A stretch of DNA of 62,859 bases, the filler included. It is 4 parts of 4 records of this genome, joined end to end, with 100 filler letters (N's around TTAATTAATTAA, not from the genome) between each part and the next. Parts side by side here need not be neighbours in the genome. Positions count along the whole stretch, not along the records: positions 24,450 to 54,468 come from SRR31156797_16048; 3 more parts are not named here. One strand, 5' to 3'. A model generated the notes under the pieces. The model was not told the origin of the DNA and did no database searches. It was given only the letters and a program-made list of their open reading frames with translations. Each line of letters opens with the position of its first letter. The first letter of the stretch is position 1. This document shows, in pieces, positions 35,385 to 44,717 of this stretch. A program made the translations under genes and the position numbers.

Positions 35385-35670
35385 TGGGGATTATGAAGAT
35401 TTTTCCGTCCCCGATCTCTCCCGTATGGGCCTTTTCCTTGATGGCTTCCACCACCTGGGGCACCAGTTCCACTGGCACCACCACTTCCAGCCTTATCTTC
35501 GGCAGAAAATCCACCACATACTCCGCACCGCGATAGATCTCCTTGTGTCCCTTCTGCCGACCGAAGCCTTTGACCTCGCTCATGGTGATCCCGCTCACGC
35601 CCAGTTTGAGTATGGCGTCTTTTACCTCGTCCAGTTTAAACGGCTTGATAATAGCCTCAATCTTTTTCAT
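35332..35670 (-). CDS. glnB: nitrogen regulatory protein PII
   Basis: 112 aa. [26 protein letters not shown] with T-loop Tyr51, and GDGKIF. glnB versus glnK cannot be resolved from sequence, but no amtB is adjacent. Confidence 0.93.
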
Positions 35671-38318
35671 ACGGTACAGTCTCCTTGCTCCTCCAGACCG
35701 TCTTTTGAAAGATCAACGGCCTTTGTGGGTCTGACTTTTCGATAAATCTCTAAAGGGCTTTTTGACGCCCCGTCCACCACCAGGAGATCCTTTTCAATGG
35801 AAATCCCGAACATGCGCTCGTTTTCCTTCAGGTAGGGTAAGATAAGATCCCAGTCCTTCTTTTCAAGGCCCGTCACCGCACCACCGTTCAACTGCCGGTC
35901 GTCTATCATGTGGTGCGGATCGCGCACGTAGATGGCGCCGCCTGAAGCCAGACTGAAAAGATTGGAACCCGGGTACGGCGTCTCCTGGGGCAGGATGTTC
36001 CCCTGGTCGTCAAAGGTCATGCCGTTTAAGACCACAAACCCGCCCCCGTTATGGGGGTCGCCCGCCATGAAAGATTCACCCAGGTAGTCCAGGCAGGTAC
36101 CGTTGATCACCACCCGGGGCCGGCCCACGGCATTAATCAACGGCCGGCCGGCGGCATTTCCCATCACATAGACCTCGCCCCCTTTGGCGCCGTACATGAA
36201 CGTCTGGCCGGCGTCCCCATAAATCACCATTTTGCCGGCTTTCATGATCTGCCCCAACTGGTCCTGGGCATTGCCGTGCACATGGATGCTCAACCCGTCG
36301 ATTCCCGAACCCAGATAATCCCCGGAAGAGCCGTAAATGTCAATGCGGACACCCCCGGAATCAGGCCCCAGACCGCATCCATGAAACCGCTGTCCCTTGA
36401 GGCCGAATACAATGAACCGCCGCCAGCCGCGCAGGAACGCCTCCGCCATGAGACGGCTGTCGCAATGGTCCCCCTCCGGCGGAAAGAGAGACGCATCGAT
36501 AATCAATACCTTTTCATCATAGGAGGGGCCTCTGAAAAAAGCCCTGGTCTCCCAGTCCACCAGGCGATAGGCGCTCTTAACGTCTTCCCGGGCCAGGGAT
36601 GGAAAATGGCGGAATATGGTCTCCAGGGTCTGGTTGACCATCTGCAGAATGGACCGGCGCTTCTTGTCGTATGTGGGGTAACGCCGGTCCAGCAGCCGGG
36701 TCAAGGCCGAAAGGGCCATTTCCAGGTGGGCATCCCCTCTAAGGGCCCACCCCTTCACCTCCTTGAGGCAGTCCATGAAATCCGCGAAATCCCAATTGGC
36801 CAGCTCATCACGCATGTACTCAAACAGAAGGTCGTCCCGCTGGAGATCAAAAAACCGGGAGACATCGAAGCGGTCTTTCTCCTCCCCTTCATCCAGGTAG
36901 TACACCCGGCCGGGAAGGTAGGCCTTCTGGTCTTCGGGAGGGGGTTCCACCTCACGACCGAATTTGTCCACGCAGGTGATGCGTCGTTCCGTGACCCCAT
37001 TACCCGCTTTGTCCAGATTAAAAATGAAGGCGCCCCCATCCGTATGGCTGCCGCCCCGGGCGTTCCAGCAGCGATCGGCCACCGTACCCACCCTGGGGTC
37101 TTCATCGGCGAGACTTTTGAGGGTGGCATCCAGGGCCTGTTTCTCGGAGCAGATGAGCCCCACCTGAACCTGGCCGTCGTGCAGACCGAAAACCTGGGGT
37201 CGCAGCATGGCCGTATCGGTGATGCCGATCAACTGAAGCCGGTCGTTTTCCGTATCATTCCGCGCAATGATGAAAAACCAGGGGCCGTCCGGAGACCCGT
37301 GCACATGGGCCGCCTGGATGGCCCGGTAGATTTGCTGTTTATCCCCGGGCAGTTGATCGAAATCCCGCTCCATGGTGGGGGCCAGGGCCTCGATCACATA
37401 CTCCAGCGGATATTGGTAGGTTCGACTGTAAAGGTCAAACAGAAGGGCCGACACTTCCGTATCCGTCAGGAACTGGGGATAGAGATTTTTCTGGCGAAGA
37501 TATTCCGCCACGGAATGGTAGTTGGCAAAATCGCCGTTGTGTACCAGGGCTTCGTTGAGCCCCACAAAGGGGTGGGCCCCACCCGGATGCCACACCCTAC
37601 CCTTGGTGGGATACCGCTGGTGGGCGATCCATACATTCGCCTTGAAGTTGTCCAGCTGGTAGTATTCCACCACCTTTTCCGCATACCCGACTATTTTGAG
37701 GATAAAGAAATTCCGGCCGTGGCTCATCACAAAGGCATGCTGCTCGGAATAGGCATCGTAAAAAGCCTTGTTGATATTGAAGCTGTTCTGATATATGAAT
37801 TCGTCCTCAACCCGTCTTGTGGACGTCCCTTCCAAACCGTTTTTTTCCGTAAAGTGCACCAGAACCTCCGGTTTCACCCGTACAAAATATCGGAGCACCT
37901 CGGGGGGCTTCACATCCAGGCCCCGAATGTCCCGGTAGTCGGGCACATGGGGGATCCGTTCCGAAAAGTGCACGTCAAAAAAAGGATCAATAAACCGTTT
38001 TTCAAGATCCGGCACCACCCCTTCATTTAACACGGCAATATGGAGGATATAGTTTTTTTCAAGGATCTCATGGGATACACCCAGCATTCGGGCCTCAAAA
38101 CCCATGGCCGCAATGCCGCCGCCCCGTCCGTTTCCCCGGTTGTGCATCTGTTTGCTGGGTTCGTAAATGTGCTTCCCCCTCACCGGAATGCTACATGCAA
38201 ATCCGGTAACGCCACACCCCCCTTCGGTCTCCGTTTCAAAGCAGGATTTTTTTGGCAAATCATCGACCAGAGTCTTCCTAGATCGAATTACGCTTTCTAC
38301 AAAGGTATTATTTTTCAT
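35667..38318 (-). CDS. split glutamate synthase subunit: class II glutamine amidotransferase fused to a GXGXG domain
   Basis: Propeptide then GGCGVTG (Ntn Cys), HQRYPT, HPF, HNGD, TDTE, and C-terminal GDYLG/GESFMAG glycine repeats. No FMN barrel. Confidence 0.8.
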
Positions 38319-38349
38319 TTTTTCGCAACCCTTCTCGTTCCCAGGGAAG

Positions 38350-38379
38350 GCTAATAGCTAATGGCTAACAGCTAATTGC
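38350..38379. repeat. heptamer tandem repeat (gctaaNN)x4
   Basis: gctaata-gctaatg-gctaaca-gctaatt. It supplies the TAG stop of the upstream gene. Confidence 0.7.
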
Positions 38380-43314: not shown

Positions 43315-43340
43315 TTCCTGGATAAATCCTTTCTTGGTTG

Positions 43341-43377
43341 GCTGTTAGATGTTAGCCGTTAGCCATAGGCTAACGGC
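43341..43377. repeat. heptamer repeats ending in a perfect 10-bp hairpin between glnA and mvhD
   Basis: gctgtta-gatgtta-gccgtta, with stem gccgttagcc-ata-ggctaacggc at 43355-43377. Confidence 0.7.
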
Positions 43378-43388
43378 CATTATCCGCA

Positions 43389-44717
43389 CTACAGGGTGGA
43401 CAGATACTTATCCAGTTCATACTGGCTCACATGGGTTCGATAACCGTCCCATTCGATCCGTTTGTTTTCAATAAATTTATTGAACACATGCTCCCCCAGC
43501 ACATCCCGGACCATTTCACTCTTTTCCGTGGTCAGGATGGCGATGTACAAGTTCCCCGGAAGATCGGTGATCCCGTGGGCCTTTCTTTCGGCCGGGTTCA
43601 TTTCAAAAATATCTTCTTCCACGGGGGCTGCCAGTTCATATTTATTTTCAATTCCCTTGAGACCCGCCCCCAGCATCACCGCAAAGGCAAGATACGGGTT
43701 ACAGGCCGGATCGGGGGACCTGAATTCAATGCGGGTGGCATTTTCCTTGCCCGGTTTGTACATGGGAACGCGAATCATGGCGGAACGGTTTCTTCGGGCC
43801 CAGGACACGTAGACGGGCGCCTCGTACCCGGGAACCAGACGCTTGTAGGAGTTGACCCACTGGTTGCACACAGCCGTGATTTCAGGGGCATGGCGCATCA
43901 ACCCGGCAATATACTGCTTGGCAATGGTGGACAGGTTGAATTCATCGGATGAATCATAAAACGCATTCTTGTCCTTCAGGAAAAGGGACTGATGCACATG
44001 CATGCCGCTTCCGTTTTCTCCGAAGATGGGTTTGGGCATAAAGGTGGCGTAAACGCCGTTCTGGCGAGCGATCTCCTTGACCACCAGGCGGTAGGTCATC
44101 ATGTTGTCCGCCATGCGTAGCGCCTCCTGGTACCGGAGGTCGATCTCGTGCTGGCTGGGGGCCACCTCATGATGGCTGTACTCCACCTGAATCCCCATGT
44201 CCTGAAGGGCAAAGATGGTATCGCGCCGCAACGAGCTTCCCATGTCCACGGGCCGGGAATCGAAGTACCCTCCCTTGTCCAGTACTTCCGTGCATTTGTC
44301 GTCTTTGAAATAAAAATACTCCGCTTCGGGACCCACATAGAACGTATACCCTTTTTCAGCAATTTTCTTGAGAAGCTTCTTGAGCACATACCTCGGATCT
44401 GCCTCATAGGGGGTTCCGTCAGGGTGCAACACATCACAAAACATACGCGCCACGGGCCGGTCGCCGCTTCGCCAGGGGACCAACTGGAAGGTGGTGGGAT
44501 CCGGTTTTGCAATCATGTCACTTTCCTCAATTCGTGCAAAACCCTCAATGGACGAACCGTCAAACCCCATCCCTTCGGTCATCCCTTCTTCCAGTTCAGA
44601 AGGGGTAATGGCAAAACTTTTCAGTACCCCCAGCACATCGGTAAACCAGAATTGCACAAAACTGATATCCATATCCTTTACAATTTTCCTCACATCATCA
44701 AATGACTGACAGTTCAT
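43389..44717 (-). CDS. glnA: glutamine synthetase type I (GSI-alpha-like, 442 aa)
   Basis: FDGSSIEGF, HHEVAPSQHE, NGSGMHVH, KRLVPGYEAP and IEFRSPD motifs. ATG at 44717 follows AAGGAGGA. Confidence 0.96.
   Translation of the reverse strand: MNCQSFDDVRKIVKDMDISFVQFWFTDVLGVLKSFAITPSELEEGMTEGMGFDGSSIEGFARIEESDMIAKPDPTTFQLVPWRSGDRPVARMFCDVLHPDGTPYEADPRYVLKKLLKKIAEKGYTFYVGPEAEYFYFKDDKCTEVLDKGGYFDSRPVDMGSSLRRDTIFALQDMGIQVEYSHHEVAPSQHEIDLRYQEALRMADNMMTYRLVVKEIARQNGVYATFMPKPIFGENGSGMHVHQSLFLKDKNAFYDSSDEFNLSTIAKQYIAGLMRHAPEITAVCNQWVNSYKRLVPGYEAPVYVSWARRNRSAMIRVPMYKPGKENATRIEFRSPDPACNPYLAFAVMLGAGLKGIENKYELAAPVEEDIFEMNPAERKAHGITDLPGNLYIAILTTEKSEMVRDVLGEHVFNKFIENKRIEWDGYRTHVSQYELDKYLSTL

Follow-up and report, generated by a model that had tools for sequence, protein, structure and literature searches.

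A split glutamate synthase conserved beside MvhD and MetVF genes: a candidate folate-coupled route of ammonia assimilation

The stretch of DNA analysed here, called the window throughout (62,859 nucleotides, filler included; four parts of one genome joined end to end, with positions 24,450 to 54,468 taken from record SRR31156797_16048), carries on its minus strand a run of nitrogen-assimilation genes with genes of one-carbon metabolism set among them. The glutamine synthetase gene glnA is followed by genes for an MvhD-like [2Fe-2S] adaptor, for the MetV and MetF proteins of a methylene-tetrahydrofolate (methylene-THF) reductase (MTHFR), and for a glutamate synthase (GOGAT) whose modules lie on separate proteins, here named barA, barB and GATase-GXGXG (GATase, glutamine amidotransferase). 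The split GOGAT variant beside MvhD and MetVF is real, conserved and common. The reading preferred here is that methyl-THF feeds electrons to this enzyme through MetVF and MvhD, to which a probability of about 0.4 is given.

The gene run in the window

Genes were called from a listing of open reading frames (ORFs) together with Pfam and NCBIfam scans of the window proteins (Table 1). An earlier sequence-only reading had described a minus-strand run of glnA, an mvhD-like gene, metV, metF, two barrel genes and a GATase-GXGXG gene under a sigma-54 promoter, with most junctions overlapping or very short and no hdr gene nearby. That order was confirmed by the ORFs and domain scans, and is correct as far as it was given; glnB, glnD, classical gltB, gltD and carA, which continue the run downstream, had been overlooked. 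The junctions are as tight as had been described: 4-nt overlaps join mvhD to metV, metV to metF and the GATase gene to glnB, and gaps of 12, 53 and 74 nt separate metF from barA, barB from the GATase gene and glnA from mvhD. Two starts were assigned by their ribosome-binding sites. The glnA frame is open to 44762, and the ATG at 44717 carries a AAGGAGGA site; the barB frame is open to 39973, and the GTG at 39877 is argued as its start by a preceding GGAGGAG site, with which barA and barB overlap. A scan of the 74-nt gap between glnA and mvhD called no terminator-like site, and co-transcription of glnA with the downstream mvhD-GOGAT genes is a working hypothesis. Because classical gltB and gltD continue the run, the organism has a canonical NADPH-type GOGAT in it as well.

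A search of the whole window gave no HdrA homolog, its single match being 59 residues (39% identity) inside barB, at 39596-39772 in the 4Fe-4S ferredoxin part, and no hdr genes were seen in the Pfam scans of the neighbours of the run. No second mvhD, metV or metF was found across the window. The promoter site was also as had been read, an exact match standing before glnA.

Table 1. Features of the run and its flanks, with positions along the window
Feature	Position	Strand	Evidence and remarks
glmS	45067-46893		Pfam/NCBIfam match; listed in the minus-strand run, before glnA
Sigma-54 type promoter site TGGCACCCCAATTGC	44800-44814	-	Exact TGGCAC-N5-TTGC match, about 83 nt upstream of the glnA start ATG
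glnA, type I glutamine synthetase	43389-44717	-	TIGR00653, 542.6 bits (cut-off 429); PF00120, 443.9 bits
Hairpin in the glnA-mvhD gap	43348..43384		Inverted repeat I5; no T run after it
mvhD-like, [2Fe-2S] adaptor, 148 residues	42868-43314	-	PF02662, 80.8 bits
metV, Cys-rich partner subunit of MetF, 222 residues	42203-42871	-	PF12225, 124.3 bits
metF, MetVF-type methylene-THF reductase paralog, 310 residues	41274-42206	-	PF02219, 134.3 bits
barA, 465 residues	39864-41261	-	Fer4 and the C-terminal half of PF01645 only, 65.9 bits
barB, about 501 residues	38372-39877	-	Fer4 and PF01645, 307 bits
GATase-GXGXG, fused class-II glutamine amidotransferase and GXGXG, 883 residues	35667-38318	-	PF13522, PF01493
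glnB, PII protein	35332-35670	-	PF00543, 115 bits; 4-nt overlap with the GATase-GXGXG gene
glnD, PII uridylyltransferase	32727-35384	-	TIGR01693, 591 bits
Classical gltB, large subunit of NADPH-type GOGAT, 1520 residues	28168-32730	-	PF00310, PF04898, PF01645 (492.7 bits), PF01493
gltD, small subunit of NADPH-type GOGAT	26736-28175	-	PF14691 and PF07992
carA	25600-26739	-	Pfam scan; same-strand continuation past gltD

The split glutamate synthase

The sequence-only reading had spoken of a three-subunit GOGAT. A split GOGAT is indeed encoded, made up of barB as its single catalytic barrel, the probably non-catalytic paralog barA and a GATase-GXGXG fusion; it has no pyridine-nucleotide subunit. 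barB aligned with residues 848-1169 of the A. brasilense GltS alpha chain (1ea0_A) at 183.7 bits, the AQGAKPG.GG block included, and contains the (beta/alpha)8 synthase domain for flavin mononucleotide (FMN) with its substrate loop; by this alignment it is the catalytic GltS FMN barrel, with a ferredoxin-like domain added. In three of five genomes checked (G002, G003, G004) the barB of the cluster is the only PF01645 match of at least 300 bits in the genome.

barA is a full-length paralog of barB, 27% identical, in which the PF01645 match spans profile positions 193-368 only. It is without a stretch of about 50 residues holding KYAQGAKPGLGG, the substrate-loop block, and has an altered GGTGA motif; because this loop is deleted, it does not qualify as an FMN synthase domain with substrate loop. 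The SGGI and GADGV barrel motifs are retained. Twelve cysteines are invariant in 32/32 barA homologs, eight of them N-terminal and four C-terminal in a C-x2-C-x2-C-x5-C arrangement, and residues 111-155 form a block that is likewise invariant in the 32 homologs. An AlphaFold2 model of barA had a mean predicted local distance difference test score of 72.6, with the barrel confident and the Cys-rich N-terminus and invariant block poorly modelled. Foldseek placed the model among FMN-dependent barrels, the widest cover being with 1ea0_A (GltS alpha; TMq 0.49 over 430 columns). barA is thus probably a non-catalytic electron-transfer subunit made of a ferredoxin-like domain and a degenerate GltS-type barrel. 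Both barA and barB carry a two-cluster ferredoxin-like domain, and both have the four-Cys C-x2-C-x2-C-x5-C motif in place of the C-x5-C-x4-C of aligned GltS. A prediction of a barA-MvhD complex, run without the supplied alignments, scored 0.01 against a mark of 0.34 and is evidence neither way.

The third protein is a class-II amidotransferase with a C-terminal GXGXG domain. Of 59 homologs, at least 90% retain its EGGC35GVTGF, TDTE and other class-II blocks and also those of the GXGXG domain (PF01493, 56.6 bits against a cut-off of 32.5, residues 644-812); the linker at about 450-595 is not conserved among them. The EGGC35 and TDTE motifs are presumably the catalytic motifs of the class-II (N-terminal nucleophile) amidotransferases, and because the GATase cysteine lies 34 residues in, a propeptide or a later start is implied. 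Together, the three proteins are predicted to form glutamate from glutamine and 2-oxoglutarate.

MvhD, MetV and MetF

The MvhD-like protein was aligned with the MvhD chain 5odc_D at 51 bits. It has the MvhD/FlpD fold and four cysteines (C14, C43, C68 and C73), invariant in 32/32 cluster homologs, which we take to be the ligands of a [2Fe-2S] cluster. The usual HdrA or hydrogenase partner is not encoded in the window, and the conserved neighbour of the gene is instead barA, in 72/72 loci. The metV and metF genes (PF12225 and PF02219) form the adjacent pair of a MetVF-type reductase, with a gap of at most 30 nt in 65/65 loci. At least 90% of 69 homologs share the motif blocks of the MetF family, and methylene-THF/methyl-THF oxidoreductase activity is predicted. 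No solved structural relative of MetV was found.

Additional MTHFR genes occur in the hosts checked. As a check on its proposal, the sequence-only reading had suggested a search for further, housekeeping copies, and 2 to 9 PF02219 matches per genome were indeed found in 9/9 MetVF-type genomes checked, among them Hdr-linked MetVF and a canonical MetF. In two genomes the other metF copies stand beside HdrA-like and MvhD genes, beside HdrC-HdrB-HdrA or an HdrL-like giant gene, or are MetF-MetV fusions. These findings suggest that the GOGAT-linked MetVF is a dedicated paralog. The window MetF is 58-65% identical to Hdr- or HdrL-linked MetF of related genomes and MetV 48-52%, with MvhD only 31-33%; a changed docking partner would explain the lower identity of MvhD.

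Trees of MetF and barA point to repeated linkage. In the MetF tree, from a quick search with long branches flagged, copies located behind the GATase gene make up a deep clade of their own (Shimodaira-Hasegawa-like approximate likelihood ratio test 99), and copies upstream of barA fall in two further clades. Well-supported branches of the barA tree require at least 10 changes of the MetVF label. Hdr-linked MvhD proteins cluster together in the MvhD tree (8/10, support 93); the tree, of a short protein and with long branches, does not place the window MvhD relative to the barA-adjacent kind.

A divergent MTHFR-like gene without metV (PF02219, 81.5 bits) was also observed in one related locus (L040:10461-13130), past the GOGAT genes and hisF and followed by a gene for a membrane iron-sulphur (Fe-S) protein with Nitrate_red_gam and Fer4 domains. 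A similar copy lies beside response regulators in two others (L081, L086).

Conservation of gene order

Conservation was evaluated in three sets of loci. For the first, a profile of barA relatives was used, and the best 80 of at least 569 confirmed stretches from species-representative genomes (48-89% identity) were read for gene order by tblastn with the window proteins; upstream order was taken from the 72 loci with at least 2300 bp before barA. Among the barA relatives is one of 79% identity that its source labels as strain NaphS2. In all 72, mvhD lies upstream of barA. The order mvhD-metV-metF-barA was found in 57, mvhD-metV-barA in 4 and mvhD-barA in 11, and five of these last 11 have metV-metF directly after the GATase gene. 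barB and GATase-GXGXG directly follow barA in 61/62 loci with enough downstream DNA, the single exception (L078) having an extra barA-like fragment. Between metF and barA the median distance is 14 nt, with no more than 30 nt in 45/57 loci, and metV and metF overlap by 4 nt across the set. An apparent MvhD-MetV fusion in L067 was rejected as a scaffold gap read as XXXX.

For the second set, the even sample, 201 genomes were spread evenly over the phylum to which a related genome belongs, so as to lessen bias in the count; barA was called at a threshold of E 1e-60 and loci were classified by hidden Markov models. This set overlaps the first set in at least 5 identical rows and in L006. barA was present in 61 of the 201 genomes, and metVF belonged to the cluster in 36 of those 61. 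The order of the window, mvhD-metV-metF-barA, accounted for 25/61 loci, and metF-barA with the contig cut upstream for 3. Four more had a second mvhD before barA or metF with hdrA upstream, and four read mvhD-barA-barB-GATase-hdrA-mvhD-metV-metF. The remainder comprised mvhD-metV-barA (3/61), mvhD-barA only (15/61), a GlcD-like gene in the slot before barA (5/61), and neither (2/61, of which one ends with its contig). The third set came from a second phylum, where barA was found in 4/151 genomes, and 4/4 read mvhD-metV-metF-barA.

Linkage of MetVF to this GOGAT is seen with barA identity as low as 39-48% and in both phyla, and the synteny proposed as a check by the sequence-only reading is kept across classes. 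At least five gene orders join MetVF to the split GOGAT, and by the MetF tree more than one MetF lineage is involved.

Variant clusters

Some variants bear on what occupies the position before barA. In four loci, where barA is the most distant (40-42% identity), neither mvhD nor metVF is present; directly before barA these loci encode a protein of 616-630 residues that joins a GlcD-like flavin adenine dinucleotide (FAD) dehydrogenase to a GlcF-like Fe-S part (L141:3121-4971, L142-L144). At a further locus (L147:5208-12794, minus strand) the GlcD-like module, barA, barB, GATase and GXGXG are fused in one frame of 2528 residues that has glnA as its neighbour and contains neither N nor internal stops; because the GATase cysteine is internal, this protein would need cleavage. 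In that lineage, fusion ties the upstream module physically to the GOGAT, and by position MvhD-MetVF would play the same electron-input part. The comparison suggests that the slot before barA holds an electron-donor module.

barA and barB are themselves fused in 6/61 loci of the even sample and in all of the best 120 longer relatives listed, as proteins of about 980-1070 residues (P0124-P0243; L128, L130-L132, L135, L137, L148, L149). Source labels of the fused forms include Chloroflexota, Planctomycetota, Spirochaetia, Latescibacterota, Kiritimatiellae, Elusimicrobiota and Fibrobacterota among many phyla.

Clusters reading mvhD-metV-barA without metF form a clade (L055, L073, L078, L080, L109, L117, L118). 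One locus (L149, 11114-15866) has a second split GOGAT-like set right after its MvhD-MetVF-linked GOGAT, consisting of a 397-residue protein with a weak match to the window GATase-GXGXG profile and no Pfam match, a barrel with Fer4 and Glu_synthase domains, and a GltD-like NAD(P)H module joined to a GXGXG domain in one protein. Paired isoenzymes are thus found both in the window, with classical gltBD in the run, and in L149, with its GltD-fused split GOGAT.

Several variants contain hdrA in the cluster (L110-L113, L116, L124, L126, L140, L145). In some of them the series hdrA-mvhD-metV-metF comes behind the GATase gene; elsewhere two MvhD genes are present, in the order hdrA-mvhD-metV-metF-mvhD-barA, or a second mvhD lies between metV and metF.

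Promoter and nitrogen context

The exact sigma-54 pattern has only two matches in the window, the one before glnA and one at 47057-47071 on the plus strand, which precedes a divergent second glnD. When one mismatch is allowed, 5 matches are found across the window against 3.84 expected; these are not rarer than chance, and so the promoter argument rests on position and exactness. In related loci, sites with at most one mismatch precede a same-strand glnA in 22/48 cases and mvhD in 10/127, compared with 17/700 random windows. glnA, PII or glnD genes are present in 39/80 of the fetched stretches in the first set and in 22/61 in the even sample. One MvhD-only cluster is placed among guaA, pyrG, nadE and hisF.

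Two other features of this region were observed. The arms of a 29-nt inverted repeat (44741-44769 and 44967-44995), 86% complementary and perfect over a core of 19 nt, stand on either side of the glnA sigma-54 site, one upstream and the other in the leader; the repeat may serve as a pair of activator binding sites or fold into a structure in the leader. The divergent glnD (47057-49786, plus strand), with its own exact sigma-54 site, and the glnD of the run are paralogs about 31% identical.

The source of electrons

NADPH, NADH and ferredoxin are the known electron donors of GOGAT, with F420 a putative one. From the gene content, cofactor motifs, conserved order and paralogs described above we infer a complex, an electron path and its direction. 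Electrons would enter the split GOGAT by way of the MvhD-like adaptor and barA, and in this organism the dedicated MetVF paralog would be plugged into that adaptor. Methyl-THF would be oxidised at MetF, and its electrons would pass through the MetV Fe-S clusters, MvhD and the barA clusters to the FMN of barB, where 2-iminoglutarate, formed from glutamine and 2-oxoglutarate, would be reduced to glutamate. Electrons near -200 mV, too weak for the reduction of NAD(P)+ or ferredoxin, would thereby be spent on ammonia assimilation. Coupling of the split GOGAT to methyl-THF is plausible and is favoured here on four grounds: the analogy of the donor slot, the dedicated MetVF copy, the second GOGAT of NAD(P)H type paired with the split one, and the energetics. 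Taken jointly with this electron path, and under the same rough probability of 0.4, the best explanation of the minus-strand run is a nitrogen-controlled super-operon with two glutamate synthases, GltBD and the split two-barrel enzyme.

The energetic argument can be given in outline. The couple of 2-oxoglutarate and ammonium with glutamate lies near -140 mV and glutamine hydrolysis contributes about -14 kJ/mol, and from these values the GOGAT couple (glutamine and 2-oxoglutarate to two glutamate) is estimated at about -70 mV. The lactate/pyruvate couple, at -190 mV, would suit the GlcD-like variant likewise. For methylene-THF/methyl-THF a standard potential of -200 mV is reported (PMC8760232). 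A broader form of the proposal, which can be advanced only tentatively, is a family of substrate-coupled glutamate synthases. Its common core would be MvhD or another Fe-S linker, barA, barB and GATase-GXGXG, and interchangeable dehydrogenase modules, MetVF for methyl-THF and the GlcD-like protein for a 2-hydroxy acid, would feed it electrons of about -200 mV. The sequence-only reading had proposed a GOGAT fed by methyl-THF. The conserved order, the MTHFR paralogs and the GlcD-like slot speak for that idea; MetVF did not prove to be part of the core, MvhD-only clusters making up 15/61 of the sample.

A number of observations weigh against methyl-THF as the donor. Besides the MvhD-only clusters, which show MetVF to be dispensable in the family, 3/61 have metV without metF, and in three such genomes (G093, G127, G159) every other metF has its own metV, which leaves the GOGAT-linked metV an orphan. 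An acetyl-CoA-synthase marker was found in 28/36 hosts of MetVF-type clusters and 14/15 hosts of MvhD-only clusters and so does not separate them, and one genome with the cluster (G044, a 2.5-Mb single contig) has no acetyl-CoA-synthase match; given these counts and G044, supply of methyl-THF from the Wood-Ljungdahl pathway is not general. The marker is more frequent in genomes with barA (48/61) than in those without (82/140; Fisher p 0.006, uncorrected for relatedness or incomplete metagenome-assembled genomes). No MvhD, MetV or MetF domain occurs in the best 120 longer barA relatives listed, which are barA-barB fusions only. High cellular glutamate shifts the estimated GOGAT couple toward -200 mV, and the driving force may then be small; the flux of nitrogen assimilation is, moreover, small beside the catabolic flux of methyl-THF. 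Finally, purified MetVF enzymes accept electrons from reduced ferredoxin in vitro (PMC8760232), with which MetV as an entry point for ferredoxin would fit.

That last property underlies the main rival, which is unlikely and yet has to be taken seriously. Reduced ferredoxin would be the donor to a shared hub, entering at MetV, at the ferredoxin-like domains of barA and barB, or at both, and MvhD would split electrons between barB and MetF, so that MetF, reducing methylene-THF to methyl-THF, would be a second sink and not a source. Type II MetVF enzymes behave as this would require, none of them using NAD(P)H (PMC8760232). The two-cluster domain on each barrel protein agrees with ferredoxin entry, clusters with MvhD or MetV only could function without MetF, and the occurrence of the cluster in hosts without an acetyl-CoA-synthase match is accommodated as well. 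However, a ferredoxin hub gives no reason for an extra MTHFR in a sigma-54/glnA run when 2 to 9 MTHFR genes, one of them canonical, are already present; the GlcD-like module found in the slot before barA is a dehydrogenase that oxidises a substrate and no sink; and the linking of different MetF lineages to one GOGAT argues for a specific redox link.

It is more doubtful still that the genes are neighbours only, with MvhD-barA-barB-GATase a self-sufficient, ferredoxin-dependent GOGAT and MetVF an independent MTHFR that shares its operon and regulation. The lack of MetVF or MvhD fusions to GOGAT parts among those 120 longer relatives and the frequency of MetVF-free clusters are what such a view would expect. 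Against it, metV-metF sits between mvhD and barA and close to the latter, the linkage has been kept at the lowest barA identities sampled and in both phyla, and several gene orders and MetF lineages have been joined to one GOGAT. Least probable is a bifurcating or confurcating GOGAT, in which a flavin in barA, or HdrA where present, would couple glutamate synthesis, the methyl-THF couple and ferredoxin: the SGGI and GADGV motifs could hold a second FMN in barA, and among the 61 sampled loci hdrA immediately precedes the cluster in 4 and immediately follows it in 5, but that second FMN is putative, the window is without HdrA, and bifurcation from methyl-THF (-200 mV) to ferredoxin (-400 to -450 mV) and GOGAT (about -70 mV) was judged unlikely, as by estimate from these potentials methyl-THF cannot drive ferredoxin reduction.

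If electron flow from methyl-THF is correct, a folate- or 2-hydroxyacid-coupled GOGAT would be a new link from one-carbon or fermentative catabolism to nitrogen assimilation. It would also identify one sink for the electrons of methyl-THF oxidation; which acceptor takes them in acetyl-CoA-oxidising anaerobes has long been asked. Because the barA-type GOGAT is common and provides the sole full barrel in three of the five genomes checked, the identity of its true donor bears on how nitrogen metabolism is modelled for anoxic sediments and digesters.

Other features of the window

Toward the left end of the window (1-25500) the G+C content drops from 52-59% to 25-32%. The carB frame there (24402-25448) holds the first 348 residues only, and glycosyltransferase and methyltransferase genes lie beyond it; this low-G+C end may have been acquired as an island or may stem from a chimeric assembly. 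At the other end, on the plus strand (54688-62857), the gene of a 603-residue leucine-rich-repeat protein precedes a frame with Laminin_G_3 domains, longer than 2114 residues, that runs off the window.

Comparison with known systems

Four types of MTHFR (I-IV) have been distinguished (PMC8760232). Close to the present system is the type IV enzyme HdrCBA-MvhD-MetVF of Moorella thermoacetica and Sporomusa ovata, which shares the order mvhD-metV-metF, the same MetF and MetV families and an adaptor of MvhD type; for S. ovata, a pull-down with tagged MvhD recovered HdrA, HdrB and MetF (PMC9430772). The window differs in having no HdrA, HdrB or HdrC gene with MvhD-MetVF, as clusters elsewhere in related genomes do, in having a split GOGAT as neighbour, and in the low identity of its MvhD to the Hdr-linked kind. 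Type II MetVF of Clostridium ljungdahlii and others, dependent on reduced ferredoxin in vitro, resembles it in the MetV-MetF pair and the overlap of the genes; here, by contrast, an MvhD-like gene precedes the pair and GOGAT genes lie within 12 nt. Co-localised MetFVD genes, often apart from HdrABC, have been described with Hdr assumed to be the partner (PMC6085437).

On the side of GOGAT, the NADPH-dependent GltBD and ferredoxin-dependent GltS enzymes have the same GATase, FMN barrel and GXGXG modules. The present enzyme differs from them in carrying the modules on separate proteins, with no central domain, no GltD and an extra, non-catalytic barA; in its N-terminal two-cluster domains and the four-Cys motif that replaces the three-Cys motif of GltS; and in being encoded alongside a classical GltBD. 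The archaeal-type split GOGAT and the putatively F420-dependent GOGAT of methanogens and anaerobic methanotrophic archaea (ANME) are also alike, with split polypeptides, a barrel with a ferredoxin-like domain and a swapped input protein of FrhB type (PMC9012536). The variant described here has MvhD with MetVF, or a GlcD-like protein, as its input. It also differs from the archaeal build as generally understood in its fused GATase-GXGXG and its barA paralog.

The sequence-only reading knew of no such system, and a search of the full-text literature, with subscription journals and supplements outside its scope, likewise turned up no description of MvhD or MetVF with GOGAT. The system is best filed as a new GOGAT variant and equally as a new partnership of MetVF-type MTHFR, for which, if the coupling is true, GOGAT would be a fifth partner beside none, RnfC2 and HdrCBA-MvhD.

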